64,000 nucleotides of DNA from a virus (lineage: Duplodnaviria; Heunggongvirae; Uroviricota; Caudoviricetes). Shown here in pieces: positions 5,705 to 62,700 of this stretch. The stretch covers positions 1 to 64,000 of IMG/VR virus record IMGVR_UViG_3300021426_000007; one strand, given 5' to 3'. Position 1 is the first letter of the stretch, and each line of letters begins with the position of its first letter. The translations under genes and the position numbers were made by a program. The notes beneath the pieces were generated by a model. The model searched no databases. It saw only the letters and a program-made list of their open reading frames with translations, and had not been told where the DNA came from.

Positions 5705-5786
5705 TGCCGGAGAGGGGACTCGAACCCCCACGGATTTCTCCTTCAGATTTTAAGTCTGACGCGCCTGCCAATTACGCCACTCCGGC
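5705..5786 (-). tRNA. tRNA-Leu (anticodon TAA), long variable arm
   Basis: Manual fold of the reverse complement: acceptor GCCGGAG/CTCCGGC, anticodon stem-loop TCAGA-CTTAAAA-TCTGA, T-loop GGTTCGAGTCC, extended variable arm. Confidence 0.75.
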
Positions 5787-5976
5787 TTGTGCGCTTGCCG
5801 CTTAGATTGTCACTCCGTTCAACTCTACGGTTGCGTCCAATCCAGGGTTGGTTACCATCTACCACCATTACGTTGTCCCCATATCGCCGGACCTACCTGG
5901 CAGTTTTCAGCGACCATTATCATTCTCTGTGAGGTGCTGCGCTAACGCTCACATCATCCGGGCGCGACCCGGCCTC

Positions 5977-6071
5977 TGGCGGAGTGACTGAGACTCGAAC
6001 TCAGACACGGATGTTCCTCCGTTACTCCTCGATTAGCAATCGAGTGCCTTACCAATTAGGCTTACCACTCC
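5977..6071 (-). tRNA. tRNA-Ser (anticodon GCT), long variable arm
   Basis: Manual fold: anticodon stem-loop CTCGA-TTGCTAA-TCGAG, T-arm CTGAG-TTCGAGT-CTCAG, 3' CCA encoded. Confidence 0.7.
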
Positions 6072-6078
6072 ATATAAA

Positions 6079-6152
6079 TGCTGTCGGTTGGACTCGAACC
6101 AACGATCGCCCGATTATAAGTCAGGAGCTCAAACCATCTGAGCTGCGACAGC
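6079..6152 (-). tRNA. tRNA with anticodon TAT (Ile, AUA-reading)
   Basis: Canonical cloverleaf: acceptor GCTGTCG/CGACAGC, D GCTC/GAGC, anticodon stem CCTGA/TCGGG loop CTTATAA, T GTTGG-TTCGAGT-CCAAC. Confidence 0.7.
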
Positions 6153-6449
6153 ATGTAATACTCCGGGGAAGACTCGACTCGTTCCACTGCCGCCAGAAGC
6201 GACTACTCTACCATTTAAGCTACCGGAGTATACGTGTGTGGGATTTCGGACATACCTTCACCCACGCGGCTTTGTTGTTTCATCCCGCGACTCTACTGGG
6301 AGCCAGCTGCCATGGGGCCGAAAGGAGGTGGGGGTTCGCGTACCCACCAGCGAAAAGAACAGAGCCAGTTATTACTTCTCGCTACCATGATTACCAAAAA
6401 TACCTGACTGCCATTGGACTTCGCGACAAGTCCGGCGATGACACATAAA

Positions 6450-6521
6450 CAGAGCCGACAGGATTCGAACCTGTGATGGAGGAGTCAAAGTCCTCTGTGT
6501 TACCGACTACACCACGGCTCT
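6450..6521 (-). tRNA. tRNA-Gln (anticodon TTG)
   Basis: Acceptor AGAGCCG/CGGCTCT, anticodon stem GAGGA/TCCTC loop CTTTGAC, T-arm ACAGG-TTCGAAT-CCTGT. Confidence 0.7.
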
Positions 6522-6526
6522 AGATA

Positions 6527-13435: not shown

Positions 13436-13849
13436 TCAGAATTCCGGAGCGGCTGGAATCTCCGCCCACCACCGGACTGTACTGGTATCTACTACATACG
13501 GACCGGATCGCCCTGTGTCGATTGACCAAGTCCCGTACGATACGTCGTAGTGCAGAACCGCATAAGTGTAAGGGCCTCGCACTGACGATCTGTACGCACA
13601 CAGGTAGTCGCCTGTTTCTCTTGGCTTGCTCAGCCTGGCCTGTACATAAGGATGATCGAAACCACGGAGAGCATCCACGCTCACACCCAGAGCCTTCGCA
13701 AGTCTCTCACCTGCTGCCTCAGTCGGCTGTTTCCCTGTCTTCTCTAACTCGCAGATAGTAGACGGGCTCACACCGGACATCTGGGACAGCTGCTTCATGG
13801 TGTATCCGCTCTTGATTCTGAGCTGCTTCAGATGGTTAGGCATCAGCAT
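13436..13849 (-). CDS. XRE-family repressor-like protein (CI-like candidate)
   Basis: LKQLRIKSGYTMKQLSQMSGVSPSTICELE HTH_XRE at N-terminus plus C-terminal extension; divergent from Cro-like gene. Confidence 0.65.
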   Translation of the reverse strand: MLMPNHLKQLRIKSGYTMKQLSQMSGVSPSTICELEKTGKQPTEAAGERLAKALGVSVDALRGFDHPYVQARLSKPRETGDYLCAYRSSVRGPYTYAVLHYDVSYGTWSIDTGRSGPYVVDTSTVRWWAEIPAAPEF

Positions 13850-15671: not shown

Positions 15672-16114
15672 GGTTGACACAGTCGACATGGTCGACACAG
15701 TCGACACTACTTAGAAAAGACTAACTTGAGTTAGCCAAAACTAGTGCATAGTTGTGGCCAAAAAGTGTCGACCTAAAGTAGACAAGTGCCAACCTTGAGA
15801 GGCCAAGGTCGACACTAAAATACTAGACTGTGGTTGCGTAAGTGGGGTGTGTCGACCTGAAAAATGTGTGTGTGTAAAAACAGGTCGACATGGTCGACAC
15901 AGTCGACACTAAGTGATCAAAACCATATGAAAATATATATATTTATGTACTTTTAGTATAGTATTCTATAGATAAATAGTGTCGACCTTGGAGTTATAAG
16001 GTCGACACTGGAGGGCTCAGGTCGACACTGAAGAGAGCACTTTAGTGATTTAAAGTGTCAGGGTGTCGACTGTGTCAACCTATATTATACACAGAAAAAA
16101 CGGTAGGTCGACAC
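15672..16114. repeat. iteron array: about 16 copies of 9-bp (G/A)GTCGACA(C/T) in both orientations, plus AT-rich stretch at 15930-15978
   Basis: Forward copies at 15672, 15681, 15690, 15699, 15807, 15883, 15892, 15901, 16000, 16020, 16106; reverse (GTGTCGACC) at 15765, 15849, 15979, 16063, 16072. The array is bounded by mirror-image tandem blocks; (TG)6 at 15865. Confidence 0.85.
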
Positions 16115-19910: not shown

Positions 19911-20012
19911 TAATAAATTTCTTTTGAGACCGGACAGGATGTCGAGTCCTGCCCACGCACCATGCCTGACTCCTGTTTATACTCGCATGGTCGAGTGTGT
20001 TATCAATCCTCC

Positions 20013-21866: not shown

Positions 21867-22178
21867 TTATCCGTATATTCGGATGAATCTGTTTGTCAGT
21901 CTGGTAACTTCTCTTTTCGTTTTTGTCCAAGCTTCTTTCGACGTTCTTCCTTTATATACTTTCGTTTCTTGTGCTCCGGTGATACAGTTTAGAAATTCCG
22001 TTTCGACTGCATAGTATCCATCTGCTGTTCTGTATTCTTTGTATTTCATTTCAAGAAGTTTTCTAAGCATTGCTTTATCCTCCATCATATTTCTTTCGGC
22101 ATGCATGCCGTGTAATTGTTTCGCTTCTGTTGTGGCTTTTCTTCCGGTGTGGCATATCCGATTAAGGACATGCCACAC
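21867..22178 (-). CDS. hypothetical early protein (103 aa or less)
   Basis: ORF track; real start may be the internal MMEDKAML. Confidence 0.4.
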   Translation of the reverse strand: MWHVLNRICHTGRKATTEAKQLHGMHAERNMMEDKAMLRKLLEMKYKEYRTADGYYAVETEFLNCITGAQETKVYKGRTSKEAWTKTKREVTRLTNRFIRIYG

Positions 22179-22215: not shown

Positions 22216-23025
22216 TCATCTCAGCACCTCTGCAATGTTGTTGCTGTCATGTGTACCGAGGTAGCATTTCCATCCGCAATCATCACACTTCTTACCATTG
22301 CATTCACTTGCGCCATTGGCGATTGCTTCTAATGTACTAGCTTCGTCTTTGTATACGGTGAAGACATAGTTGAAATACTTTGCTTTCTTTGCGGTGAAAC
22401 CAATGATGTAAGAGGATTGCACCAGTATGAGATTTTCCGGTTTGCCAAGCTTGTCGCATGCTCTGATTACAGCAGATACATTCTTTGCCCAGTATCCAAT
22501 CTTTGCCCAAGGGAAAGCATATGCAATCTTGATCATGTTTTCTGCATATGTCTGATTCGGTGTATCACCGGAAGAATTGACTCTTGTGATTTGCGTAATG
22601 GTTAACGTCTTCAATTCATCAATTGAGAATTCAACATGCATCATAATCAGCATGTTCAACGTGTGGCGATTGAGAACGTCAATCCATCTTTTCTCTTGCT
22701 TCATGTCGTAGCAGTGAAGGCATATGCAATCGGGATTGTCTTTGTTAGCTTCACGGATTTGCTTGCAGAATTCACAATTGCCCGCCGTAGAGTCAAGAGA
22801 TGTTGCGCCCTCTATCTTTCCGGAATCGTGAAACGCTGGGCGATAAAGCTTGAGCAATTCCAGACGGTCGTCATGTGTGAGATTTTCAAATCCCTTGCTG
22901 AAGATTTCCTGCACTCTTGCAAGCTCTTTTTCAAACTTGCCTGCGTTAACTTTCACATAGAATTTACAGCCCATGAAAGAAATCTCTTTTCTTTCCGTCT
23001 TGACTTTTGTTGCTTTCTTTGTCAT
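22216..23025 (-). CDS. first gene of the early leftward operon, Cys-rich protein (269 aa)
   Basis: ORF track; CEFC...CICLHC...CNGKKCDDCGWKC clusters; lies directly after the 1.5-kb control region. Confidence 0.55.
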   Translation of the reverse strand: MTKKATKVKTERKEISFMGCKFYVKVNAGKFEKELARVQEIFSKGFENLTHDDRLELLKLYRPAFHDSGKIEGATSLDSTAGNCEFCKQIREANKDNPDCICLHCYDMKQEKRWIDVLNRHTLNMLIMMHVEFSIDELKTLTITQITRVNSSGDTPNQTYAENMIKIAYAFPWAKIGYWAKNVSAVIRACDKLGKPENLILVQSSYIIGFTAKKAKYFNYVFTVYKDEASTLEAIANGASECNGKKCDDCGWKCYLGTHDSNNIAEVLR

Positions 23026-23076
23026 AATAGATGTACCATCCTTTCAGATTTTTGTAGGTTTGTTAGCTTGGTGTTT

Positions 23077-23171
23077 CCGGTTAACGTCTCGCACACGTTA
23101 ACCGGATTTATTAAGTAGTTGACTACTACTTTGAAAACCGATTCTTTTCGAATCAGCTTTCAAAGTAGTAG
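23077..23171. promoter_or_regulatory. palindromic operator/hairpin elements upstream of early operon
   Basis: CCGGTTAACGT-8nt-ACGTTAACCGG (23077-23105) and 49-bp near-perfect palindrome CTACTACTTTGAAA...TTTCAAAGTAGTAG (23123-23171). Confidence 0.5.
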
Positions 23172-23503
23172 GAAAGGAAAATCTTTTCTTTTGATTTGAT
23201 TCTTTCATCAAAGTTTATCAAATCTGTTTTGGTTTTCTTTTCTCTACTCTTTTTTTAAGTAGATAGTTTCCGCAATGTCACGGCGACAATAAATTGTCTT
23301 GCGGTCTTTTCCCGTCATGTCGTGATTTTCTTACCATGGAAGTTAATCCGTACAAGCGCCACATTTTTTTGGTTTTGCTTTGCAAGCTAATGCGGGGAAA
23401 CTTGCCTCTCTATTCAATTATCAAAGTGCCCTCCGGCGATTGTCTCTTTCCATACGTTCTGCACTTCCTACTTGCCGTCTGTTTTTCACTTCCTTTCTTA
23501 GCG

Positions 23504-23523
23504 TTTCAAACCATGGTTTGAAA
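23504..23523. promoter_or_regulatory. 20-bp perfect palindrome TTTCAAACCATGGTTTGAAA
   Basis: seen directly. Confidence 0.4.
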
Positions 23524-23832
23524 TTTCCGCTTCGGCTTTTGGCGCTACTTGTATTCAGTTTCCTTAGGAAAGTTTCAATCGGTTTATCCGGTCATGCTTT
23601 AGCTTTTCGCTTGTGCTCTCACACTTGCCCTTGCGAATTTTGGTGGGCGCATGTGCTTTGCTAGGGACGTCTTAGATTGTGGTGGGCAAAGCGGAAAGGA
23701 AAAGCATATCAATCAGCTTTGGCCCTTGTTCGATTGTGGCCATAGTATAGCGCATACTTTGGCCCTTGTCAATAGGAAATTTTTGTGTTTACAAATAATT
23801 CATAAATCAACAGAAGTATATTATCTTTCATA

Positions 23833-23873
23833 TCATATGAGCAATCATTCATATGAATACCTATTCATATGAA
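23833..23873. promoter_or_regulatory. three copies of palindromic TTCATATGAA within 41 bp
   Basis: 23833-23840, 23848-23857, 23864-23873. Confidence 0.45.
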
Positions 23874-24209
23874 AAAAGAATGTCAAGGCATTCCAAAATT
23901 TCCGTATTCATGTATCCATATATACAGCACTACACATGTATGAATGTATACAAGAATACAGAAGCGATAGACTACAATCGTAGTCGTGACAAGCGCGTGA
24001 CATTCTGGAATGTATAGAGGAAAGAAAGCCCGTCGCGCTTTACCTCTTTGCCTGTTTAGGTATACGGTTTACTAGGCCGATTGTTTTTACTTGGCGCCCC
24101 ACTATTAAAGGAAACTGAAAATTTTTTAACACACTCTCCGCTAGGTAGGGCGCATCGTGTTGCCTATTAAAGGAAAGAGGGCTCGGATTTAGCACTTTAA
24201 ATCGGTAAA

Positions 24210-24270
24210 GACCCCCCATGCCTCCGAACGGGGGTGGGGGGTCTGCATATATTATATATATAAAACTTTT
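24210..24270 (+). terminator. GC-rich hairpin GACCCCCCA...TGGGGGGTC (terminator-family copy 1)
   Basis: stem 24210-24218/24235-24243, T6 run at 24265. Confidence 0.4.
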
Positions 24271-24424
24271 TTCGCATATTACTTCCCTCCAAAAATCCAA
24301 ATTCAGCTTTTTCCGAACTTAAATTCTGAATCACGATTTCACTCGGGTTTGTTCATAATTTAGAAATATCTTAAATTGTGATTATTATACTAGAAGATAT
24401 CAAAAAAGTTGATAACTTATTTAC

Positions 24425-24470
24425 GACCCCCTATGCCCTGGAAACGGGTGTAGGGGGTCTTTTATTATTT
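24425..24470 (+). terminator. rho-independent terminator (family copy 2)
   Basis: GACCCCCTATGCCC-TGGAAAC-GGGTGTAGGGGGTC followed by TTTTATTATTT. Confidence 0.6.
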
Positions 24471-24544
24471 CCGGACCTCGCTGCCTATATTTTTCCAAAA
24501 TCCTAATTATGAACTTTCTGTTAACGATTATGAAGTCAGACCCT

Positions 24545-24572
24545 TGTTTTGCAGTTAACTGTGTCATATAAT
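24545..24572 (+). promoter_or_regulatory. candidate late promoter TTGTTT-16-TATAAT
   Basis: TTGTTT 24545-24550, TATAAT 24567-24572, about 35 nt upstream of the first late gene. Confidence 0.35.
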
Positions 24573-24606
24573 ATAGGGTAGTGAATTTATAGATTGAGGT
24601 GATCCG

Positions 24607-25056
24607 ATGGCTTTAACCAAGGAGGAACGCCTGGCCAGGTTGAATTCACCGGAAGCCAAGGCGAAGATGAAGGAGACGATTAACTCTCCCGAGTATCAGG
24701 AACAGCGTAGAGAAAAGAGAGAGCGGATAAAGAACTTCAACAAGCTGGCTCGATATATGATGGAAGCGGAGATTCCGGATGGCGATGCAGCCCTGGACGA
24801 ACTCCACGCTCATGGTTTTTACCAGGGCGATTATCAATCTGCTGTATTTCTTGGCCAGTTGAAGAGAGCTATGAACGGTGATCCGGAGTCTGCGAAGTTC
24901 TGTAGAGACACAGCCGGATACAAACCGACAGAGACGCTGAATCTTGGTAATGCGGACGATAAACCTTTTGAAGCGATTGATTTGTCGAAGCTTTCGACAG
25001 AAGAGCTCAAGAAGATGGTGATGGCCCGCCAGCCTCTGTATACGACAGAAGAATAA
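24607..25056 (+). CDS. putative terminase small subunit / DNA-packaging protein
   Basis: First gene of rightward operon, immediately upstream of terminase large subunit; 149 aa, basic/helical N-terminus. Positional call only. Confidence 0.35.
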   Translation: MALTKEERLARLNSPEAKAKMKETINSPEYQEQRREKRERIKNFNKLARYMMEAEIPDGDAALDELHAHGFYQGDYQSAVFLGQLKRAMNGDPESAKFCRDTAGYKPTETLNLGNADDKPFEAIDLSKLSTEELKKMVMARQPLYTTEE

Positions 25057-25065
25057 AAGAGAAGA

Positions 25066-25104
25066 CCCCTATACCTGTTAAACGGGCATAGGGGTTTTGT
25101 TATG
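25066..25104 (+). terminator. rho-independent terminator/attenuator (family copy 3)
   Basis: ACCCCTATACC-TGTTAAAC-GGGCATAGGGGTT + TTTGTT. Confidence 0.55.
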
Positions 25105-25125
25105 CGCTTTTGAGGTTACTGCCTA

Positions 25126-25726: not shown

Positions 25727-27241
25727 ATGAATTCTGAACTAACTAACTTATATGCGGAACTGGCGCAGCGCGAACTGACGAAGAGATCGTTTGCGGATTA
25801 TCTGGCCATGGCTCAGGGACCGACTTGGAAGCGGACGCGGCTGAGTGAGTACCTTGCTAATGAGGTACAGAGGTTCGTTGAGACGCCGACGGAGAACGCG
25901 TACGACATCCTGGTGGTGGAGTGTCCTCCGCAGCACGGGAAAAGTACGACGATCACAGAGTCGTTCCCAAGCTGGTATCTCGGGAAGTATCCGACGAACA
26001 ACGTGATTATCGCATGCTACAACAAGGACTTCGCTGAGAGGTTCTGCCGTAGGAATAAAGAGAAGATCCGGGCGCTGGGCACGGACATCTTTGGAATAAA
26101 CATCGGGTCGATAGACAGAGCCGATGAGTTCGAGCTGGACAATGCTAAAGGGAGACTGATCTCCCGTGGTATCATGTCCGGCATTACCGGTAACCCGGCC
26201 AACCTGATCATCATCGATGACCCGGTTAAGAACATGCAGGAGGCCGACTCTCCTACGTACAGATCGAATGTATGGGAAGAGTGGCAGGCATCACTGAAGA
26301 CCCGTCTTGCGGCTAAGGCGAAGGTTGTTATCATCATGACGCCATGGCATGCGGACGATCTTGCTGCCAGAGTCCTTGCGAATGAACCAAACAGTAGACT
26401 GGTCCGTATTCCGGTTGAAGCGGAAGAGGATGACCTGCTTGGTCGTGAGGTAGGGGATGCGCTCTGCCCGGAGTTGGGTAAGGACAAGAAATGGATGCTG
26501 GACTTCAAGGAGTCCTACATCCATGACCCTCAGGGCGGTATGCGTTCATGGACAGCTCTTTATCAGTGCTCGCCTCGTATAGAGGAAGGTAATCTGGTCC
26601 AGAGAGACTGGTGGCGGTTCTACGATCCTGATGATAAGGAAATTATGTTCGGCTCCGAGATCATCTCTGTTGACGCGGCGTTTAAGTCAGCAGATACAAA
26701 TGACTATGTCGCTATTCAGGTATGGGGCAAACGAAGAAATGATTATTACCTGAGAGCGAGTTTTAATAAACACCTCGACTTCCCCCAGACTGTACAGATG
26801 CTCCGTACAGTCAAGGCGATGTATCCGAATGCTAGAGTGATACTGATCGAGGATAAGGCGAACGGTCCCGCGATTATCTCTACGCTACAGAGAGATCCGG
26901 ACATGTTCGTAATACCGGTTAATCCTTCCGGTGGTAAGGTCGCCCGTGTGAATGCGGTGAGTGCGGCCATCGAATCTGGTCACGTGTTTCTTCCTACACC
27001 TGAGAAAGCGTCGTGGGTGAACGAGTTTATCGACCAGTTTACATCATTCCCGAATGGGGCGCACGACGATATGGTTGACGCAGCGTCCCAGGCGTTACAT
27101 AGGATGATCTACTTCCGGGGCGAGTACGAAGAGTACAAACCCACGGAATACGAGATCGCGGCGAAGAAGGAAGAGACGGATTTCAATGATCCGGATGTGT
27201 TGTTTAATCCGTATGGAACTACGGACCAATTTTTCAGTTAA
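25727..27241 (+). CDS. terL: terminase large subunit
   Basis: Walker A CPPQHGKST, Walker B LIIIDD, C-terminal nuclease motifs DAAFK...GAHDDMVDAASQAL. Confidence 0.9.
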   Translation: MNSELTNLYAELAQRELTKRSFADYLAMAQGPTWKRTRLSEYLANEVQRFVETPTENAYDILVVECPPQHGKSTTITESFPSWYLGKYPTNNVIIACYNKDFAERFCRRNKEKIRALGTDIFGINIGSIDRADEFELDNAKGRLISRGIMSGITGNPANLIIIDDPVKNMQEADSPTYRSNVWEEWQASLKTRLAAKAKVVIIMTPWHADDLAARVLANEPNSRLVRIPVEAEEDDLLGREVGDALCPELGKDKKWMLDFKESYIHDPQGGMRSWTALYQCSPRIEEGNLVQRDWWRFYDPDDKEIMFGSEIISVDAAFKSADTNDYVAIQVWGKRRNDYYLRASFNKHLDFPQTVQMLRTVKAMYPNARVILIEDKANGPAIISTLQRDPDMFVIPVNPSGGKVARVNAVSAAIESGHVFLPTPEKASWVNEFIDQFTSFPNGAHDDMVDAASQALHRMIYFRGEYEEYKPTEYEIAAKKEETDFNDPDVLFNPYGTTDQFFS

Positions 27242-50707: not shown

Positions 50708-50722
50708 AGGAGAGAATAGCTT

Positions 50723-53700
50723 ATGGCTAATACAAAAAAGCCCGATGAAAATCAGGTAACACAGACTGATCTTGCGTCAATTCTTGCACCTCCTTCTTGG
50801 TCGCAAGCCGCAGAGACGTGGACTCCGAAAACAAATGAAGAGATAAAGACAATTGTTTCTGAGGCCGAGCAAAAAGGCCAGATAGCAAGAAACGATTCCG
50901 GCGCATTTGAGGCTACGCCTAAGCTGCAAGAAGAGGCTGATATAATTAGGGAGAGAAATAGAGAAAATGACATTTCTTCTATTCTAGCCTCTGCTCCAAC
51001 ACCGAAAGACACTTTGTCGATTGCTAAAGCGTATCAGGACTCTGGTCGTGATATAAATACGGCTAAAGAAGAACTGAAGAGTGTGACTCAAAAGGCCGAG
51101 GAGAGAGCCTCTAACACTTCTGATATCAAACGCCAGAACAAAACTTTCGAACGAGATAAGACTGCCTGGAGAGATACGGAAGGAACTACGGGTTCCAAGC
51201 GTAATGAAGTAAATAAAGACGACGGCTCTTACCACTGGGAGGGGCACGTGGACGAGGATGGTAACTGGGTCTCTGGTCTGGCTGAGTGGGCCCAAGATAA
51301 CGAGGGAAGAATCTTTTCCGAAATTGACGCTTATGATACGAATGACGGAAAAACATTCCTTACAGAAGAGGAGATCCAGGCGCATCAGCAAGAAACGGCT
51401 AACCTTTATTATGACTGTGGGGAGCTGGCGGAATATACCCAGAAGGTTGTTGATGACTTAAAAGCCAAATACGCAACTGCTTCGGATGCGGATAAGGAAG
51501 CCCTCGATGCAGAGATCAAAAGACACGAGAGCAACATTGAGACGTATAAGGGCTGGCAGAATGCCGCGAAAGAGATATACGACGGATGGAGTTCGAGGAA
51601 TGATTACTTCGATTCCATGGATGACAACAAAAAGAAAAACGTCAATGACCCGGCTCAGTATAAGTCCTATGGCGGCGACACCCCGGAGAATATTCAGAAG
51701 GCCATAGACAACTATGAGTATGCTATTAAACAGCAGCAGGATTATATTGACACGAATGCCGGATATGTGACCGACCCTATGAGCGAGGCTACAATAGGAG
51801 CTGAGATAGATAAGCGAAGAGCAGATATCGTAGAGTATAAGGCTCGTAGGGACGAACTTCTGGATAACCTGGCCCTGGCTGAGGCGCATAAACTTGAACT
51901 CGAACAGCAGAATGCCGATCTTGAACTTAGACGTAAGTACGCACTTATTACCGGACAGGACGAAAGTGGTAAGAACAGCGTAATCCATGCTCCTAAGGCG
52001 GATGATTGGAAGAGTATATCCGTTGAGCTGAATACGCAACTTTCGAATGCCATAAAGGCAGGTAACGAAGCTGAGGTGGCTAGTCTCACTAATGAGCTTC
52101 GTTTTGTAGATCAGCAGTTTGAGGAGTTTACAAAATCTGATCTACAACAAAAGTACATAAGTGTCAGTGACGAAGAGCTCGATAAGGCTATTGCCAAGTT
52201 CACTTCCGCCACGGAAGAAAAGCAGGGCAAGGAAGCCGGAAACCAAGAGAAGGCAAGTACTGTTCCTGTTCGTACGGCGGATGATATTAAAGCGGAGATA
52301 GCAAAGCTTCATCCGGAAAAGGACCGAGACAAGTACACCGCTCTGGTTAATGAGCTTAACAGCCTCGGTAATCCCTCAGATACTGTTACAGAAGTTGCTA
52401 CCACTGAAGAGACTCCTGCTGAGGAGAAAGAGCTTACGGATGCGGAGAAGTGGGAGCTTGATATCCTACTTCAGGAAAAAGAACGCCGTGAGATGGAAAA
52501 GCTTTTCCAGACGGAGTATGTAGCGAAATATGACGATCAAGCGGCTTTGAAGTGGTACGAAGAAGCGACAGCAAAAAAAGACGCTGCACTCAATGATCTG
52601 TACAAAGCCCTTAATTCTGCCAACCCACAGGCCGGTAGAATTAGGGCCGCGAATCTGGAAGGCATTGCGGATGATGCAGCAAAAGAGGCTGCTTATGCAA
52701 GGATTAAGTACGAGGAAAGTCTTCTGTCCAGCCCGAGTATTAATACGGACGTAGCAAAAGGGATGGCGCTTGCCCCTAGCATCGGTGATCTTCAGACCGC
52801 GTTTGGGTCGATAGTTCCGTCCGATAAGGGTGGGGCTCGTAACAGGGGAATTCTAGCAGGGCTTAATATTACCGGGGAAGATGCCGACAGTATTATTTCT
52901 ATGCTGAATTCAATCGGTGTAAGTGCTAAAGACTTTGTACCGAGAGTAGAGGAGACGACAGAGGGAGAAAACCCGACCAGCATATACGCCCGTGGCAAAA
53001 CAGCTAGAAACTGGACGCAGTCAGAGCTTGACATTTATTATTCCTTATGGGCGAAGGAAGGTGCTGCTGCGGCTGCGAAATATGCTTTTGAGGTAAACTC
53101 TGTTATTGGGCGCAATTATCACGACCAGATCCTCAAGACGATGATTGACGTAAAAACATATGACGCTGAGCATCGTACTGGGGAATTTGTGACTGAAGCC
53201 CTGCTTGCACCGTGGGTGACCAATCCTCTTAATATAACCGCACTCGCTGACTTTGCTGCTACAACTAGCCAGGTACGGAGAATAGGGACTGCGATGACGA
53301 GTCCTACTAGCTTCACACCTAGTGAGCTTGGGAATATGCTAACGACGGCGCATTCCACTGCGATTCAGGAAACTGCGACTTACCCGCAGCTTGCGTCTCT
53401 GTTATATAACTCCTATAACTCCGCAGTTGGTAGTGTTGAAAGCGCAGCAATTGGTAACGCTATAGGAAGTGGTCTTTCCGCAGCATTAGGTCTCGGACCG
53501 GACGCTCTTGCAGTTACGCTCGGGTCTAAGACATTCCATCTTAAAGATAACGCTGCTCAAGCTATTGCTAGAAGCTACACACAATTATCATTCTTCGGAA
53601 GTGCAGCCGCTCGGTCCTATGATGATTTCATTAAGCGCGGAGTAGAGCCGGGTAAAGCGTGGGGTGCTGCTCTCGCGGCTGGTATGGCCGAAGCTTTCTT

Positions 53701-56700
53701 TGAAGACTTCTCGTTTGATAAAGTCTACGATGCTATTAAGACCGGCCATATTATCGATACGGCTGGGGCTTTCTGGGGTAACCTCGCCGCAAGCTCCGGT
53801 ATAGAAATGTCTGAAGAAGTCTTCACCGAGATGTCTAACTTTATTACCGAGAATATGATTCTCGATAAGAACAGTTCCTTCTGGGTTGCTGTTAATAACT
53901 ATCACGGCTATGGTGGAATGAGCTATGCGGAAGCACTGAAGCAGGCATTAAAGGACGAGAGTGAAGAGATCGGTATGGCTGCCGCATCCGCCATTATCTC
54001 CTCGATGGGTTCAGTAGGTATTCCTTCTGGTATAAGCTACGTAGAGTTCCAGAAGCAGACAGCGCAACAGGCAAAAACACTTGGCGAACGTATTGTCAAC
54101 GGTACCGAAACAGCTAAGGACCTCGGTAAGAAACTCGGAGAGTTCTATTCTACCTTTACACTCGTAGAGGCAGGACAGGAAAATACTCTTACTAAAGGCC
54201 AGAAGCAGGACCTCGATACACTCCACGGTCTGGCAGAGAAGGCTAAAGAAGGCACCGCTACAGCAGAAGAACTCGGTCAGTTGGCACTTCTTGCAAAGCG
54301 TCTGGATAAAGGTTCTTACTATGCCTTTGTTCGGGATAACAAGGACGCATGGAACTACATCTCCAATGGCGATGCTTCTGCTGCACAGATAGACTACCTC
54401 GCTTCTCTCATTGGTGAAGAGAACGTGAATAAGTTTATCCAGGCCAGCCTGGAGAACCCGGATGCATTTATTGCGGACGATTTCGTTGCCGGACTTCGTG
54501 AGGCTACTGGTGTTACAACCGAGGAAGCCCTGAAGATTGAGAATGCTCTCGGCCTTGTAGTGGCTGGAACAAAGACACGTTCGGAAGCCCAGATCCGTAA
54601 GGCTCTGAATGAAGCTTTCAAGAGCGACGCTGCAAAGACCTACGCTCTGAACTACATCTCGGATAAAGTCCAGCAGTTCAACCAACAGAAGGGAACTAGA
54701 CAATATACTCTTGCCTCTGCAAATTCTGAGTCTGCGATTAGCCCGTGGCTGTATACTGTAAATAGCGAAACCGTTACTTCTGACTTTGAGCAGACAATGG
54801 TTAACGTGTGGTCCGGTGTACAGAGAGCAAACGAGACTCTTAACCTTGCAAACCAGGCACGGGCATTAGAACAGTTCAACGCCAAGAAGAGTGCTACTTC
54901 TGAGAGCGTAATTCGTCAGGCCAGAACACAGACCGACGGTATAGAGAACTTCCGTGACGACTCCGATATGGTTCGACTCAACGGGAAGGAATATATTAGA
55001 AAAGATTTTCTGGAGTCCATCGGAAAGGGCATTAACCCGATAACCGGGGAGTCCTTCAAGAACGGTACACCTACGCAGGATCAGGCAAATATCTACTTTG
55101 ACAATCTTCTGCGCAATGCCCTGACAAACGATGCATTCATTAATATAGTAGATGCGTCAGGTACGATGAAGAACTACGATGCCTGGCAGGAAAGTTTAAA
55201 TACAGGAGATATAGAAAATGGACGAGCAAGCGTACGTGTTAGTGAAAATGCCGGACGGAACGAAACTGCGGGTCAAAGCAGAGTCGGCGGACCAGTGGCT
55301 GGATCTGAAACCGGAGGAGTGGGAACAGCACAACCAGTTCATACAGAAGGATCTGGAGAAGCTGGAGGATCTGCTCAAGAAGTAAAGTTAGCCACCTTCG
55401 ATAAAAACGGCGAGCACGACATTACCATAAAAGGTGAGATAACGCTCGATACCGCTGGTATGACCGAGGAAGAAGTTGAGGCACTTGACAATCTCGACTC
55501 CGGTCTGAAAGTTGCAATTACTCAGGCGATGGCCGCTGGTGTCGATAGGATCATGATTGTTAACGGCAGCATGACGAACTCGAACGGCAGAGTCATTGAC
55601 GGCTTCTTCGGCAATACAAAAGTCGAAGGAAAGAGGAAGTATACGATTGTCGTGTCTTCTACCGGGGATCAAGCAGGTCTTACCAGTACTTTCCGTCACG
55701 AATTAATGCACCGCCTTATCAGCGGAATGAACGCTAAAACGAAGAGAGCTTTTCTCAATACGATTCTGGAGACGGCTTTTGCCGGGCGTTCTGAATTGTA
55801 CGAGACGATCTTCGATATATATGTCAAGTACGCATATGGCCGAGAGTATGGTGCGGCCAATATTAAGGACGGTATTCTTTCCTTAAATAAAGAGATCGTC
55901 GAAGACATCGACGAGGAAATGGTGTGCGATCTCTTTGGTGGTATAATGACCTGGGCTCGTCGGTCTCAGGATTCCGCCATCGGTGAGTTCTACCGTGAAG
56001 CCTACAACAGAATCGAGAGATTGGTTGCAGATACCGGACTGTTCGATTATGTCAGAAGCAACTGGGGTAAATCCGAGCGGAACCAGAAAGGTACGCTCGA
56101 TATCTCCGAATTCAAGGGAACGCAGGCCAACGCATTTGGTAAGAGATGGAACGGACGTAAGGTAGAGATACCGTACTCCCGTACAGAAATTAGTAGGCTT
56201 ATGTCCGAGCTCCGTAAGGACTTCAGACATATGAGTGACGAAGAGTTTGCGAAGTTCGAGCAGCGGGTCAACGGTATGGAGACTCAGCCGGGTACTAGAC
56301 AGAACCAGCTCTATACGGCGGCAGCTATGGAAATAATTGCCGAGCATGAACGCCGTGCAGCTGAATCCCGGACAGAGGAGCCTACGGATACCCAGACCGA
56401 AGAAGAGACTACAGAGGCTGCTGAGGAAACTGCGGAGACTACGGAAGAAACAACTGAGGCTACAGAAGAGACCGAGGAGGTACCGGAGGAGAAACCCGCA
56501 GAACGTCTGGCAAATAACAATATGACCGCCGAGACGGATGAGGACTTTGATGCTATTCGGAATACTCTGATGAAACTGAAGAACAAAGAGTCCTTCTACT
56601 TTAACTATAAGGATCGTCAGTTCGTTATCACTGTAGACGAGTCCACTGACTGGGGCTCGGTATATAAGATCGCTCTGACCAACAACGGCCAGCTGTGGAT

Positions 56701-59700
56701 AAAGGTACCTATCGGGGACGCTTCTTCCGCACAGGAAGCTATTGACTTCATCCGCGCACGGATGGACGATACAGAAGAGACGACCCAGGAAGCAACGGAA
56801 ACTGAGCTTGACAAAGGCCAGCAGTATCTGAACTTCCTCCGCACAATGTCCGAGCAGTCTGGTGAAATGAACGAGGATGACTTCGATGCGATGTTTGGCA
56901 GTGCTACCGACGAGATCCTTCGTGGTATTGTCGGAAGAGAAGCCACAGATGACTTCGAACGTAGAGCTATCGAAGCTGCTCAGAAAGAGATCGATAGACG
57001 CGCAGCAGAAGATAAGGCCATTGCTGAACAGGATAGTGTACAGGAAGAAGTCGCAGAAGAGGCTCCGGCTACTGAGGAAGCAGCTCAGGTGGAGGAACCG
57101 GCGACTGAAGAGAAACCCGCACCGAAGAAACGCGGCAGAAAAAAGAAAGAGCCTGCTGCGGAGAACGGCATACAGACAAAAGAAAATCTTCGCGCCAGCG
57201 AAGAAAAAGGTAGGTTTGTTAACAAGCGGAAATGGACCGACAAGACTACCAGCCCGACTGATGGAGAGACGATTACCCGGACACAGTTTGTGGAGCGTAT
57301 GACGACCACCGGCTGGGACGAACTTGACGACTTCGGCTATCCTACTCACATGACTATGGCGGAAGCTCAGGACATGTTCGACGAGTGGCTGATGGAAGAT
57401 AGAGACGGTGGCGGAGAGACAATGTACAGCATCACTGCTGACGAAGCCTTCGACGCGCTTATGCCTACTCCTATTGAAGAAGAGACTATTGAAACGAAAT
57501 TCAGTATGCTCGACGAGCAGCACAACGAGTGGGCTCCGGTGTTCTACAGTAAGATGCAGAACGTCATCGAAGACTGGACAGCCAATAGCGGCAAGAAGAT
57601 GCCCGAACGCATGGGCGCTGGCAGTGTCGTGTCTTGGCTGAAAGGCAAAGGCGTAAAGGACGAAGAGATCAAGTGGTCCGGTATCGTACCTTACCTTGAA
57701 GGAAAGAAGTCCGTTAGTAGAGACGAGCTGCTTCAGGTCATGACTGAGAACCAGTTCGAGATAGAGACAAAGGTTCTTGGTAATGACTTCCTTGGAATAG
57801 AAATTACTAATCCAATAACAGGAGAAACTTCTCTAGAGTATGACCTCGATGCGGCATATACGCAAGCGCGTTCAATAGCGGATGCCCTTGGCTATAACCA
57901 GGATACAGTTGAATACCGACCGGAAGACGATGTATTTGCTGCGGCCAGATCCTGGGGGGACGAATACGAAGTATTTCTCGATGCCAAGTCTGTGTTTGAT
58001 AGAAGCAGAGAAGGTGAACCGCAGTGGGCGCAGTATACACTCCCTGGCGGAGAGGATTATAGGGAAATCCTGTTTAAAGCCCCGAATTCCGACTACACTA
58101 ATCAAGCGATGAGGAACCATTGGGGGAGAGACGCCAAAGGAATTCTGGCTTTTGCTCGTGTGGATGACAGAGTTACGAAAGACGGCAGTAAAGTTCTTTT
58201 CGTAGAAGAGATTCAAAGCGACTGGCATAACGCCGGAGCGAAGAATGGTTTTGACGCTGGCCGGAGGATATTCGAACTCGAGGGTGAATACACTCGTCTA
58301 AAAGATAGGTGGGAGAGCCTAGATAGGGATATATTCAGAAACAGCCCATACCAACATGAGTTGCGTACGGCTATGAGAAAATTGCTGGATTTCGATAATG
58401 CTCTTCGTATCCGTCGTTTTGTTGATTCTACAAATTCTCCGACTGTTAACTCCGTTTCTAATTGGATAAAGGACGCGTCGTACAAAGTCATACCTGGAGC
58501 AGAAACCACCCCAGAACTTAATAGCTATATATTTGAATTCCTGTCTGATACCGAGAGAGAAGCTATAAATGAGCTTCGCGAAAGATACCAAGAGGTAAAG
58601 CAAGCTAAAGCTGACGCTGATAACTTTTTAAAAGAAAACAAGGTGACAGAAGAGCAGCTTAACAGGGCCAAATTAGAGTTCCCGGACGATGTTCCTTTTG
58701 CCGGTACCTCTGATACCTACCACGAATACGTGATGAAGCACCTGCTCCGTATGGCAGCAGAAGGCAACTACGACAAGATCGGCTGGACCACAGCACAGCA
58801 ACAGTCAGATCGTTGGAGCGATGACTACGCAGAAGGCTACCGTATCGAATACGACCAGAACATCCCGAAGTTCATGCGCAAGTACGGCAAGCAGTGGGGT
58901 GCTACTGTAGGCTCTACTGTTCTGGAGAATGGCGAGGAAGTCTGGAGTGTGGATATCACACCCGAGATGAAGGAAGATGTCCTGTATAAAGGGCAGACTA
59001 AGTTCTCCATTACAAGCGATCTGTATAACGAGTATGGTGTAGACATCGATACTGCTGAAGATTCAGAGCTCGAATCCTTATCTGATCAGATTACTAAAGC
59101 ATACGACGAAGCTAAAAAAGAGCAGGCTGATATCCAAAGCACTTGGAATTCGAACGACTATGCTTCCTTGAGTGCGGATGAATACTGGGCTCGTCATCAT
59201 GAGTGGAGTGAACAGTCCGGTATCGATGCTGTAAAACGGCGCGTCGATAAACTTGGCTCTTATAACCGTGCCATTACAAAAGAAAAAGCCTGGAGAGCGA
59301 TTGACCCCGAGGCTCTTATTCAAAAGGCAAAAGATATCTACGGAACCACTGATGACTTCCGGAAATCTGGATACATCCTACCGGATGGAACGATGTTGGA
59401 TATGTCTCAGGGGGCCAACAAGCGGACTCTGTTCCACCATGAGACCGCGCAAGAAGTTCTGTTCGCTTTGAAATATCCGGCTTCAGACGCAATTGAAAAA
59501 TTCGTAGGTCGTGGTGGGGCCATCAGAATCGATGTAGACTCCGATGGTATTGATATTCCGCAAAGTGGTATGACCCCGGCTCAGTACGAAACCCTGCGCG
59601 ACTTTCTTTCTGACTTCATAGCTACTGAAGACTACGATAGAGCAGCATTCTATGTATCTACTTTTGGTAAGAACATAGGAACGTCAGAGAGATTTAATCC

Positions 59701-62700
59701 TTCCAATACCACACAGATCTTAAACGCAATCCGCCAGTACTATGATACTGGGTCTTTCCCGAAGCAATCAACAACACAACAGTTCTACGGCAGGTTCAGC
59801 ATGGTTGATACCGAGGCTGTAACACTGGATGAACTTCAGACGGCTCGTGATGAGATGCTTGATCTGCGTCAGCAGCTCAGAGATCGTAAGGCTGATGTCG
59901 ATGAGTGGAGCCGTAGAATTATGGCTGGTGAAGCTGAGATCGACGACTACAATAGGTGGCTGTCCGATAGCGGTTACAACAGACTCTACATGCAGGAACG
60001 TGAGGCAAGCAAACGGTATAACGACCTCAACCGCGCTTATGACGAGCAGCAGGAGAGAGCGAATGCCGAAGCCGAGCAGAATGCAATAGAGCAGTCCGGC
60101 TTATCTGAAGCAGATTACTTTGGCAAAGAAGCCGTAAAGGTATTCGGTTATACACCGTACTTCTACGACGCTGGGTACATTACTCCGAACGGACGGATGC
60201 TGAACTTCTCTGGTGAGAAGGGTAAGCACTATGGCTCTCGTGGTCAGGATCATCGGAGCATAGGCCAGATCTTTGCAGTGACTTCCGGCACAGAAGCCAT
60301 GAATAGGTTTATCAACTACGGTAATATCCGTATTATGGCAGAGGCTCCAGGTTTGGATATCAGCGCGGATATCGAGCCGACAGCAGAGCAGTACTCCAGG
60401 ATCCGTGACTTCGCAAGGAGCGCACGAGATGAGGACTACTTCAGCATCGATATCACGGACGAGGATGGTAGGGTCATTGATACAATCGAGTACGATAGCG
60501 TCAACCCGACGAAGATAGTAAATGACCTGAAGAACTATTACCGTACTGGCGAAGTTCCGCAGCAGTCTATAACAGAGCAGTTCCATAGTAAATATGCTAT
60601 TCTGCATGACGTGGTAGATGAAAATGGGCGGACCTACGACAATGTCGTAATGGTTGACAAGACCTTGCCTAGTAGTATCATCGACAATAACAGGGAGTTC
60701 AATAAATTTGTTAAGGCTAATTTCGCGGGCCTTACCCTTGGAACGGTTGATGACTATGGTATACCAGAGACAATTCAGTTCGCCAGCAAGAGGGACAGAG
60801 TACGCAGAAACGGTAATTCTAGAAATGCGATTACAGAACTGGCCTATGGGCGTGGACGCGACAGAACCGTCCGTCTCGTGTACCTTAACGCAGACGAGAT
60901 TGTACAGACGTCAACTTTCTGGAACTATTCAGAGCAGAACCCAAATCCGAACGAGAACCATCAGGGCTTTGATCAGAACGGCTGGGAATACAGGCGAGCA
61001 TATCTTCTCTCAGGCAATACCATCTACCCTGTAACGTTGAACATTGCCCAGACAGACGATGGGCGCAGTGTTCTTTACTTCGCACGGGTAGAAAAAAATA
61101 AAGCCGTTGGTGTCGAATACGAGGCCACAAGCAGGAATAATCCTGGAGTGGACCTCAACAGAGCTCCAGAAGTACTGGGCTCTATCAACACCTCAACGGC
61201 TGAGTCTATTATAGATGAGGCCGACGAAGATGTCAAGTCGCAAGATGTGGACGAAGAACCGCTTCTCGACGACTATGATACGGATGTTAAGTACTCTATT
61301 GCTGTCTCCGATCCCGATACACTGGCTTTCCTTAATGACCAACTGGAAAGCGGCGAGGTAACTCATACATACAAAACTTTCCTTGAAATTGTTGATGAGG
61401 ACGGCAATGTAAATCTTTACCCGCCAATGGCCTCCATGCAGAAGGTCGAAGTACAAACAAAGAGCGGTAAGACCAAGACCCAGAAGCAAATGGCCAATGC
61501 TATGCACGTCGGCGTCTGGGAAGAGTCTGTTGGTAATCCGAACTCGAAAAATATTATCCCGGATGTGTACGATAAGGGCCCGAATAAGGGCGAGCAGAAA
61601 GTAGACGAGCACGGTAATAAAAAATGGCAGTATAAACTTCAGAAAGAAGATCCGGATCTTTCAGATGTGAATGCGGCCTATGATCCATATCAGCACTCGA
61701 GCAATGTCGTTTTGAATGATCAGTTTGAGTCAGCATGGAAGCGCCCTGGGCTAGTAACTTACGAATGTGTTATTCCAAACAGCGAATTAACAAGCGACTA
61801 TTGGTACGGAGTAACAGATCCTGACAGGGCAAGAAGGGCCGACGGAGAAGTGATAACTGCGGCTTTACCAGTTGGCATGCATGAGTGGCACAAAGGCGTT
61901 ATTGCGGGAGGGCTAAAAAATACAGACCGTCAGGTCTATATGACCAGATGGCTTATGCCAATCCGAAGAATGGACAACAGCGAAGTCGCGAGGATGTACA
62001 AGGAAATTCTTGATGCTGAGTCTGAACCGATCTCTGTTCCGTATAATGTCGTGCCGCCCGGGTTGCAAGAAGAGCTGGAAAAGATTGGCGTTCCTATTAA
62101 CTACGAAGGCACTGCTGGGTTTCAATCTCTCCGTGGAAGATATGGCGAAGAGGATTATCCAATAGGAAAAAGAATCGCGGAAGAGTCAGATACAAGGTTC
62201 TCTGCTCTGTCTATTGACCCGGCTTCCACTTACGACGCATTCGGTGATGAAGTTGAAGTTTCCAACATCAACCCGACAGTTACACAGTCCATGCTCTCTG
62301 ATCAGCTCTTCTACTCCGAAGACGGTAATACGGCGTATTACCAGCTCGACACTGGCGAAACCGTAGTATTAGATAATGTAGGAGAAGACTCTCCCGAAGC
62401 ACGATACATTAATTACTTGGAGGCAATGAACAATGCCAACAGTTCTAACAATACCACAGCGCAACCTTATACAATACCTCCTGCAACTCGGAATGCCTCT
62501 GATGGATATAATCTCGGTGAATCGAATGATGGCTTACGACGAGGAACGGAAGAAGTTCCTGCGCCGGATCAAGAAGGAGCACTTCGACGCACAGGAAGCA
62601 CTACAGAACGCAATGGCCAGAGTGAACCGCAGAGTAAGGAGACGGAAGGTGTAGACAGCAAGTTCGCAGTTTCTGTCAGCGAGGTCTTTGAAAACGACAA

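Follow-up and report, generated by a model that had tools for sequence, protein, structure and literature searches.

What does a phage keep in a stretch of DNA that appears to encode no protein and that lies exactly where two oppositely oriented gene blocks meet? This question is posed by positions 23026 to 24606 of IMG/VR record IMGVR_UViG_3300021426_000007, which represents an uncultured member of the Caudoviricetes. We analysed positions 1 to 64,000 of this record (hereafter the window), which is most of a phage genome of ~80 kilobases (kb). The gap is best explained as a compound control region from which early genes are transcribed leftward and late genes rightward, and we hold this interpretation, taken as a whole, with about even confidence. 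In kind it is an ordinary phage control region, equipped with a well-supported antisense RNA unit and a conserved core. The analysis yields a worked map of the switch region for a family of uncultured ~80-kb phages, covering promoters, operators, an antisense RNA, terminators and a tentatively placed replication origin (Table 1). Such a map indicates where to seek immunity or timing control, the origin and the packaging signal once a host is found, and the conserved core and a family of sequence-conserved hairpins provide concrete, testable elements.

The leftward block includes genes for a family A DNA polymerase, an SNF2 helicase, a DUF2800 nuclease and an RNA ligase, and it ends at the gap with a GP88-like gene, which is the first early gene. 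The rightward block opens with a gene for a protein of 149 amino acids (aa), followed by the large terminase gene. A nucleotide search against deposited phages gave no match, hence there is no cultured relative by nucleotide sequence, and the large terminase is at most 47% identical to its homologues from Staphylococcus and Bacillus phages. GTDB genomes searched for a prophage or host also gave no match. Relatives were gathered with the 149-aa protein as query and reduced to 18 non-redundant upstream regions; locus labels are given where relatives must be told apart. From their accession series, the metagenomes from which they derive are taken to be rumen or gut samples, and one close relative (L004) is 90% identical overall.

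Several observations establish that the gap is free of genes. The longest open reading frames (ORFs) within it are of 94 aa on the plus strand and 86 aa on the minus strand, both with TTG starts. Reassigning any single stop codon (TAA, TAG or TGA) across the gap opened no long frame, and a hidden gene using another genetic code was rejected on this basis. A gene-free gap of ~950-1800 nucleotides (nt) is kept in 18 of the 18 relatives, and gene callers leave it empty in the relatives' records except for two isolated short calls. The first-pass annotation, which was made from the letters of the window, had proposed a non-coding divergent control region between early and late genes that holds no credible ORF. 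The ORF list, the stop reassignments and the relatives' empty gaps bear out the absence of genes, and the broader proposal is supported as well. The repeats, palindromes and hairpins listed at that time are all present to within a base or two, with two adjustments. A direct repeat at the leftward promoter is exact over 13 nt and differs at the 14th base, and a motif said to occur three times does so as its 8-nt core TCATATGA, the full TTCATATGAA being exact only twice.

Compared with shuffled sequence, the region gives folding z-scores of -6.6, -6.0 and -5.3 that are equally low on both strands, and folding this symmetrical indicates DNA palindromes rather than a single strand-specific RNA. 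Hairpins of the ACCCC...GGGGT type occur at exactly three sites in 64 kb, where 0.27 would be expected by chance. We refer to them as hairpins 1, 2 and 3; a T-run follows hairpins 2 and 3, and none follows hairpin 1 in the window. Terminator-like sites in the surrounding interval from 20 to 28 kb number 16 versus 7.2 expected. The segment between hairpins 1 and 2 had been proposed for an Rfam search, and neither that segment nor the rest of the region has a match at the gathering threshold; the relatives' gaps are likewise without matches, and a known RNA family was thereby rejected. The best match at an E-value threshold was to the PyrG leader, with 22.6 bits versus a gathering score of 65, and it covers just the terminator.

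On the leftward side, the control region appears to be built around a strong early promoter, P_left, which scores 11 of 12 in a sigma-70 promoter scan. A minus-strand promoter with this same score is found in the corresponding part of the gap in 17 of the 18 relatives. The promoter is bracketed by direct repeats, an arrangement that the first-pass annotation did not recognise: one ACTTTGGCCCTTGT copy overlaps the -35 element and spacer, and a second follows the predicted start at a short distance. In L004, the segment corresponding to 23593-23760 has been replaced, and both repeat positions are taken by a different 13-mer, ACAAGGCGCACTG. In other relatives, repeats or inverted repeats particular to each take their place. 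With position kept and sequence swapped, these repeats look like the operator sites of a phage-specific regulator. The TTCATATGAA palindromes upstream of P_left behave in the same manner and are also candidate operators, since they are kept in some relatives (four TCATATGA copies in L050 and one each in L008 and L010) and are exchanged for different palindromes at that position elsewhere. Although a weak rightward promoter abuts this cluster in the window, no rightward promoter near P_left is conserved among the relatives.

P_left, being of the host type and near consensus, would fire leftward to produce a long untranslated leader followed by the early operon. No ORF with a ribosome-binding site is conserved in the leader among the relatives compared. 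Its AT skew matches that of the leftward genes, with an A-rich composition on the sense strand, and it carries two single-base insertions or deletions (indels) relative to L004. Leaders of the relatives measure ~370-720 nt by arithmetic from promoter positions, and their sequences are unrelated beyond the closest relatives; the 49-base-pair (bp), 20-bp and 13-bp palindromes of the window's leader are lineage-specific. Hairpins formed by the leader on the minus strand have no U-runs, and therefore these palindromes would not be expected to terminate the early transcript.

At the far end of this leader lies a second unit, from which we predict an antisense RNA of ~80 nt complementary to the 5′ untranslated region (UTR) and Shine-Dalgarno region of the first early gene. 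Its promoter (P_as) has a -10 element that includes the complement of the gene's start codon. This arrangement recurs with the same spacing in seven relatives, where the promoters score 10-11 of 12. In L045, the cassette precedes a gene for a different protein, a 551-aa Amidoligase_2, whose first nine codons still supply the -35 element at the same distance. The inverted repeat that had been listed with 11 bp forms a hairpin of 12 bp, from which the plus strand continues with TTTATT; with P_as ~50 nt upstream, it has the sequence features of an intrinsic terminator. The terminator stems of the seven relatives comprise five unrelated sequences in which 77 of 77 cells are paired and after each of which there is a T-run; three G.U pairs among them pair only as plus-strand RNA. 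Even between the window and L004, the stems differ by compensatory changes. It is because the promoter-terminator layout is retained in seven relatives, with stems that are unrelated and still paired, that we predict the RNA. The predicted transcript covers CCATCCTTTC, which is the complement of the Shine-Dalgarno sequence GAAAGGATGG of the first early gene. The unit therefore has the hallmarks of a cis-antisense small RNA, namely its own promoter and terminator opposite the target and an overlap with the region where translation starts. By pairing with the early messenger RNA (mRNA), the antisense RNA would lower its translation.

Other RNA elements are present among the early genes. The window carries a pistol ribozyme at 19925-19996 (minus strand), between small leftward early genes. 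Up to three pistol ribozymes per locus are found in the relatives: three in L052 (1847-1915, 2270-2339 and 2645-2713), three in L017 (1448-1517, 1815-1881 and 2381-2450), three in L053, two in L008, and one each in L015, L014, L020 and L040. A type-P5 twister ribozyme occupies 1438-1502 of L050. All of these ribozymes are on the early-gene strand, which suggests that they may process the early polycistronic RNA that would start at P_left. The locus thus offers a natural setting for studying the role of pistol ribozymes, given that as many as three are found in the early operon of relatives. Also among the early genes are four transfer RNA (tRNA) genes at 5705-6522 (minus strand), for Leu-TAA, Ser-GCT, Ile-TAT and Gln-TTG. 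Within one early gene, 22001-22096 is 100% identical to positions 2841-2936 of L001 over 96 nt, whereas the flanks are ~85% identical or cannot be aligned. An island of identity with diverged flanks suggests recent recombination.

On the rightward side, 35 nt separate the start codon of the first late gene from the end of the -10 element of a sigma-70 promoter, P_late. Upstream of this promoter, hairpin 2 (-24 to -28 kcal/mol) is followed by TTTTATTATTT and has the sequence of an intrinsic terminator. In the 16 relatives in which hairpin 2 was aligned, 88.7% of 221 stem cells are paired and most have a T-run after it. G.U pairs are frequent at four stem positions, and the plus strand folds more stably in most relatives, which makes the conservation strand-specific; covariation is weak, since the stem sequence itself is conserved. 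Hairpin 3 is followed by TTTTGTT and likewise qualifies by its sequence. The earlier reading of both hairpins as plus-strand terminators is therefore supported. The companion proposal, a short transcript that ends near 24466 and begins at a candidate promoter at 24357-24395, was not established. That promoter scores only 9 of 12 and is in the least conserved segment, its -10 element TATTAT being TAATTA in L004, and no conserved sigma-70 promoter is present between hairpins 1 and 2 in any relative. The simplest role for hairpin 2 would be to insulate the late promoter from rightward read-through.

P_late, which is also of the host type, would drive the late operon, with hairpin 2 shielding it from upstream transcription and hairpin 3 placed after the first late gene. 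Hairpin 3 is present in L004, L016/L017 and L008. In L016/L017 and L008 there is an additional GACCCC-type hairpin with a T-run ~60-100 nt upstream of the first late gene start and after P_late, and this is a putative leader terminator, as in late operons controlled by antitermination. A promoter-then-terminator layout ahead of the structural genes suggests, by analogy, control through read-through. Late expression beyond hairpin 3 would then need read-through or antitermination, although no antiterminator (no Q-like protein or Q-binding element) was identified. The 149-aa protein encoded between P_late and hairpin 3 stands where a small terminase would be expected. Searches of Pfam, PHROGs and PDB profiles gave no match for it, and its AlphaFold2 model is all-helical with a predicted local distance difference test (pLDDT) score of 68.6 and has no fold match in the PDB by Foldseek; its identity as a small terminase is thus unconfirmed by any of these five approaches.

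The stems of hairpins 1, 2 and 3 are unusually conserved in sequence for terminators. Intrinsic terminator stems normally drift freely, as does the stem of the antisense terminator, whereas the stem sequence of hairpins 1-3 is retained in phages that share only 55-65% identity in their neighbouring proteins. This hints at a sequence-specific reader, for example an antiterminator or a nuclease.

Between P_left and hairpin 2 lies the best-conserved part of the gap, a core of ~360 nt (23970-24331), which, like P_late and the antisense unit, escaped the first-pass annotation. When the 600 nt upstream of the late gene were aligned, this core was found to consist of blocks that are near-invariant where the neighbouring protein is only 55-65% identical. 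Relatives match the window at 80-86% of nucleotides across 24201-24303, compared with 71-79% in the adjacent gene. The tandem (C)GTGACA at its left edge is present in most relatives, ~100-160 nt upstream of a fixed cluster that we call block A. Boxes of the AAAGGAAA type number one to five per relative and are always on the plus strand, and a variable spacer separates block A from hairpin 1. Downstream, spacings are fixed: 58-60 nt from the start of hairpin 1 to TCGCATATTAC, and 19 nt from TCGCATATTAC to the A-tract. A small inverted repeat after the A-tract has compensatory variants (AGTTAG/CTAACT, ATTAG/CTAAT and ATTCAG/CTGAAT). The (TA)n tract that follows hairpin 1 is conserved in all aligned relatives and is the least stable 20-bp duplex in the window, at -16.9 kcal/mol versus a mean of -27.5 (standard deviation 2.5), more than four standard deviations away. 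The core is unique within the window, and in IMG/VR the TCGCATATTAC motif in its full context is restricted to this phage family.

Hairpin 1 does not have the features of an intrinsic terminator, given that CTGCATAT follows it and there is no U-run in the window, and that its inner stem is broken in at least six relatives. A U-rich tail is found after it in some relatives, such as L043 and L052. In the relatives with a broken stem (at least L005, L016, L003, L012, L014 and L015), GCCCCC takes the place of GGGGGC in the inner 3′ arm and destroys the inner stem. This 6-nt micro-inversion appears in more than one clade (the L016, L008, L014 and L015 loci compared with L054) and leaves the 5′ half unchanged. 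It could represent recurrent inversion, recombination, or an assembly artefact at G/C runs.

Protein coding does not account for the conservation of the core. One candidate, a minus-strand ORF that spans hairpin 1 and block A and would encode 86 aa in the window and 71-114 aa in relatives, was rejected, as its frames are inconsistent and its start points differ, and comparison with L004 reveals mostly non-synonymous changes and a frame-shifting indel. These same observations place the hairpins outside any missed gene; such a gene was one of the findings that the first-pass annotation had named as able to overturn its reading. A small peptide beginning at an invariant ATG in hairpin 1 was also dismissed, since hand translation gives 12-34 aa or longer and the end is not conserved.

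An alternative is that ~23843-24466, or part of it, is transcribed rightward as a functional structured non-coding RNA of ~200-620 nt ending at hairpin 2. A conserved plus-strand terminator does close the region, and conserved sequence is interrupted by inserts of variable length that form local hairpins (in L020, a 9-bp stem with a TTCGG loop). The compensatory variation of the small inverted repeat after the A-tract includes G.U pairs on the plus strand. Furthermore, the phage family is rich in small ribozymes, and large RNAs such as ROOL were reportedly first found in rumen metagenomes. However, there is no Rfam match at either threshold, and RNAalifold applied to the core alignment found no consensus fold, recovering only the outer stem of hairpin 1, so that a shared fold of the core was rejected. 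A possible long-range pairing of T6 with A6 exhibits no covariation among relatives, the inner stem of hairpin 1 is not maintained, and the folding scores are as low on one strand as on the other, pointing to DNA palindromes. Moreover, the best rightward promoter candidates score 8.5-10 at positions that are not conserved. We consider a long RNA quite improbable. Given that the core is non-coding, lacks a consensus RNA fold and tolerates a broken inner stem in hairpin 1, we conclude that it is conserved at the level of DNA sequence, and neither as coding sequence nor as RNA structure.

The function of the core that we tentatively prefer, with somewhat less than even confidence, is that of a replication origin, where the strands open. 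This preference follows from the instability of the (TA)n tract, the GC clamp beside it, the A-tracts, the boxes that all face one way, and the position between divergent gene blocks. In this scheme the working parts would be the tandem GTGACA, the oriented AAAGGAAA boxes, the A-tracts, GC-rich hairpin 1, the (TA)n tract and TCGCATATTAC. A family A DNA polymerase and an SNF2 helicase are encoded by the phage itself, as would suit an origin. A precedent for the location exists in the Ceduovirus (c2) phages, whose origin is in a non-coding region between divergent early and late blocks and involves a non-coding early transcript (PMC7150918). The core shares this position, being non-coding and located between divergent early and late blocks. 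Neighbouring transcription may help to open the strands, as in lactococcal phage c2.

A number of points weigh against the map as we have drawn it. No initiator protein was recognised among the neighbouring genes, and DnaA boxes are absent from the region. The window has only two iteron-like repeats, of 12 nt, and L015 has none, such that of the components of an iteron-type origin just the AT-rich element is present. The AAAGGAAA boxes are similar to ribosome-binding sites, and strings like them precede genes elsewhere. The GC-skew minimum at ~24.2-24.5 kb is not independent support, because skew follows the coding strand, as in the plus-strand block at 14-18 kb; we therefore rejected GC skew as origin evidence. 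Furthermore, the search for a conserved rightward promoter gave none that could supply hairpin 2 with a transcript to terminate, and P_as lies inside coding sequence, so its conservation could partly reflect the protein. Lastly, a position beside the terminase genes would suit a packaging site equally well.

This final point introduces a competing function for the core (hairpin 1, the (TA)n tract and the flanking blocks), as a recognition or cleavage site used by terminase for packaging, whether a pac site or a terminal-repeat boundary. The core immediately precedes the 149-aa gene, which is where a small-terminase gene would be expected, with the large terminase gene beyond it. It occurs once in the window, is adjoined by repeats, and combines GC-rich symmetric sequence with AT-rich sequence and A-tracts. 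A P22-type portal gene, which is present in the homologous neighbourhoods of relatives, together with a T4-type terminase fits headful packaging, and the several relatives' contigs that span 80.0-83.9 kb begin at different points, as expected for permuted or repeat-collapsed genomes. However, the N-terminus of small terminases is usually their DNA-binding end, and that of the 149-aa protein is its most variable part whereas the core is nearly invariant; the two do not co-vary as a pac site and its reader would. The adjoining repeats differ between L001 and L002 even though the proteins are near-identical over the N-terminal region, and the 149-aa protein is itself unconfirmed as a small terminase. 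All five of the long contigs (80-84 kb) hold the region intact and internal, which argues against a cohesive-end break point, with the caveat that assemblies can bridge concatemer ends or collapse terminal repeats. Contig termini were rejected as a guide to genome ends, because those of the more distant relatives L030-L039 are AT-rich and of low complexity and one carries a Nextera adapter, which identifies them as assembly breaks rather than physical ends. On balance, a packaging site is unlikely, though it is the likeliest of the alternatives to an origin.

The repeats in question belong to the spacer between the core and hairpin 2, which also contains the first-pass candidate promoter (24359-24388). 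Relatives often have three to seven phage-specific direct repeats there, with a period of 20-43 nt. L001 and L002 have entirely different repeats, even though the N-terminal region of the first late protein, variable elsewhere, is near-identical in the two. The spacer is C-rich and G-poor in most relatives and AT-rich in the window; a role as a C-rich Rho-loading site fits most relatives but not the window (C/G 0.9) and was rejected. Because the spacer is almost absent in L015, it must be dispensable. Beyond hairpin 2, short contigs from other samples (L041 and L046) end within ~10 nt of the conserved block that precedes P_late.

It is also conceivable that the core is a platform for transcription control only, made of regulator sites that time the early-to-late switch, with hairpins 1 and 2 serving as tandem terminators that insulate. 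Its location between the early and late promoters would suit this task, as would the many phage-specific palindromes and repeats beside the promoters. In lactococcal phage TP901-1, direct repeats upstream of the late promoter are activator sites. The U-rich tail behind hairpin 1 in some relatives and the promoter-then-terminator order of the late unit, which is like that of lambda pR'-tR', are also in agreement. Nevertheless, regulator sites normally co-vary with their regulators, as the P_left operators do, whereas the core is invariant at 55-65% identity of the neighbouring gene product, and control alone leaves unexplained why an extreme (TA)n tract beside a GC clamp should be conserved. 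We regard this explanation as rather unlikely.

We give a similarly small probability as for the long RNA, if not a slightly smaller one, to the prospect of something entirely new at ~23970-24466, either a large structured phage RNA of a novel type or a protein-independent origin of a new type in which the GACCCC..ATGCC hairpins are the recognition elements. One further candidate, an injected RNA polymerase like that of N4 that uses hairpin promoters, was rejected. N4 promoters have a short stem and small loop, which the hairpins here lack; a giant ORF further downstream has no PHROG, Pfam or PDB match, and sigma-70 promoters drive both gene blocks. A replication origin thus remains our preferred interpretation of the core.

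Table 1. Features in and around the gene-free gap, in window coordinates.
Feature	Position	Strand	Details
GP88-like gene	22216-23025	minus	End of leftward block; first early gene
P_as, sigma-70 promoter	23000-23028	plus	TTGACT, 17 nt, TG-T-CATAAT; extended -10; antisense to first early gene
Leader of leftward early operon	23026-23737	minus	Untranslated, ~710 nt
Predicted antisense RNA	23035-23115	plus	~80 nt; ends at 12-bp hairpin 23076-23106 and TTTATT; ends predicted
Inverted repeat	23076-23087, 23095-23106		12-nt arms
49-bp palindrome	23123-23171		22-nt arms, 91% complementary
20-bp perfect palindrome	23504-23523
13-bp palindrome	23559-23571		In early leader
Direct repeat CTTTGGCCCTTGT	23717, 23757		13 nt exact; 14th base differs between copies; same copies as the operator-like repeats below
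Operator-like direct repeats	23717-23729, 23757-23769	minus	Two, 13 nt; ACAAGGGCCAAAG on minus strand
P_left, early sigma-70 promoter	23744-23772	minus	TTGACA (23772-23767), 17 nt, TATACT (23749-23744)
Weak rightward promoter	23807-23836		TCAACA, 18 nt, TATCAT; abuts TCATATGA cluster
TCATATGA palindromes	23833-23873		Three, 16-nt spacing (23833, 23849, 23865); 8-nt core of TTCATATGAA; candidate operators
TTCATATGAA	23848, 23864		Two exact copies
Core, left edge	23970-24002	plus	Palindrome GACTACAATCGTAGTC, then tandem GTGACA-N5-GTGACA (GTGACA at 23986, 23997)
AAAGGAAA boxes, A(A/G)AGGAAA	24016, 24107, 24169	plus	Three, same orientation; span 24016-24177
Block A		plus	Box, GAAAATTTTTT (24117-24127), ATCGTGT (24154-24160); fixed ~50-nt spacing
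Hairpin 1	24210-24243	plus	GC-rich; ACCCC...GGGGT type; 5′ half CCCCCCATGCC(C/T)CC nearly invariant; no T-run
(TA)n tract	24247-24265		Candidate DNA-unwinding element
Core, right part	24272-24331	plus	TCGCATATTAC 24272-24282; A-tract CCAAAAATCC 24289-24298; ATTCAG/CTGAAT 24301-24306 and 24326-24331
Variable spacer	24332-24424		Two 12-nt repeats CTTAAATT[CG]TGA at 24318, 24370
Hairpin 2 and T-run	24425-24470	plus	Predicted intrinsic terminator; ACCCC...GGGGT hairpin 24425-24459; ~75 nt upstream of P_late
Conserved block TCCTAATTATGAAC	24501-24514		Consensus TTCCAAATTATGAAC; upstream of P_late
P_late, sigma-70 promoter	24544-24572	plus	TTGTTT, 17 nt, TATAAT; most relatives TTGACT, 17 nt, TATAAT
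First late gene	24607-25056	plus	149 aa; small-terminase position, identity unconfirmed
Hairpin 3 and T-run	25064-25106	plus	Predicted terminator of same family; ACCCC...GGGGT hairpin 25064-25096; directly after first late gene
Large terminase gene	25727-27241		Rightward block, after 149-aa gene

Some features elsewhere in the window and in the relatives' records deserve mention. A second intergenic site, very AT-rich and readily melted much like the (TA)n tract, is located at 15926-15978, in a plus-strand gene block at ~14.3-17.5 kb and near an XRE-type helix-turn-helix gene (13436-13849). This area may be a second control region. After the late genes, an uninterrupted plus-strand frame of at least 4,426 codons extends from 50720 to 64000 and runs off the end of the window. 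Over this interval, both GC skew and AT skew mark the plus strand as the coding one. The frame has no Pfam, PHROG or PDB match, and a tblastn search against cultured phages gave one trivial match with 3% coverage. It may be an orphan virion-type protein, perhaps more unusual than the control region. Finally, positions 1-46 of L032, at the end of an IMG/VR contig, consist of the Nextera adapter GTCTCGTGGGCTCGGAGATGTGTATAAGAGACAG fused to phage DNA, a contamination of the public record.

How does this control region compare with those of known phages? Packaging sites such as lambda cosN-cosB and SPP1 pacL-pacC-pacR are upstream of small-terminase genes, and the window is similar in that non-coding DNA of a kind found there only once precedes the packaging genes and combines a GC-rich symmetric element with bent A-tracts and direct repeats. 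The lactococcal cos regions of sk1 and c2 also have repeats (R1-R4) upstream of the packaging genes (PMC7150918 for c2). In contrast to such sites, the repeats here vary independently of the adjacent protein, the site is not where contigs break, and the element is separated from the gene by a terminator and a promoter.

The late unit resembles the Q-dependent arrangement of lambda, in which pR' is followed by 6S RNA and tR', in that a good, constitutive-looking sigma-70 promoter is followed by a terminator before the bulk of the late genes. This terminator is after the first late gene in the window and in the 5′ UTR in the L016 clade. The window differs from lambda in having the 149-aa gene between promoter and terminator, and neither a Q-like protein nor a Q-binding element was identified.

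The c2-type phages offer a close parallel for the region's overall plan, with an early promoter followed by several hundred nucleotides that have no ORF or ribosome-binding site, and with sequence that varies among lineages while the architecture is kept (PMC7150918). The c2 origin, however, is between early promoters PE1 and PE2, and its non-coding transcript runs in the early direction (PMC7150918). In the window, P_left is followed by ~710 nt without an ORF or ribosome-binding site, and a scan for a second early promoter immediately before the first early gene gave none with a score of 9 of 12 or more. In addition, the best-conserved core and its putative origin lie beyond P_left, toward the late genes.

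The antisense unit has counterparts in P22 sar and lambda OOP, which are small cis-antisense RNAs, and sar covers the ribosome-binding site of ant. As in these examples, an RNA of ~70-80 nt with its own sigma-70 promoter and intrinsic terminator is predicted opposite a phage gene, and like sar it would cover the ribosome-binding site of its target. Its sequence is unrelated to that of either RNA. In contrast to both, the target gene here holds the promoter within its first nine codons, and the cassette is common to different downstream proteins, one GP88-like and the other an amidoligase.

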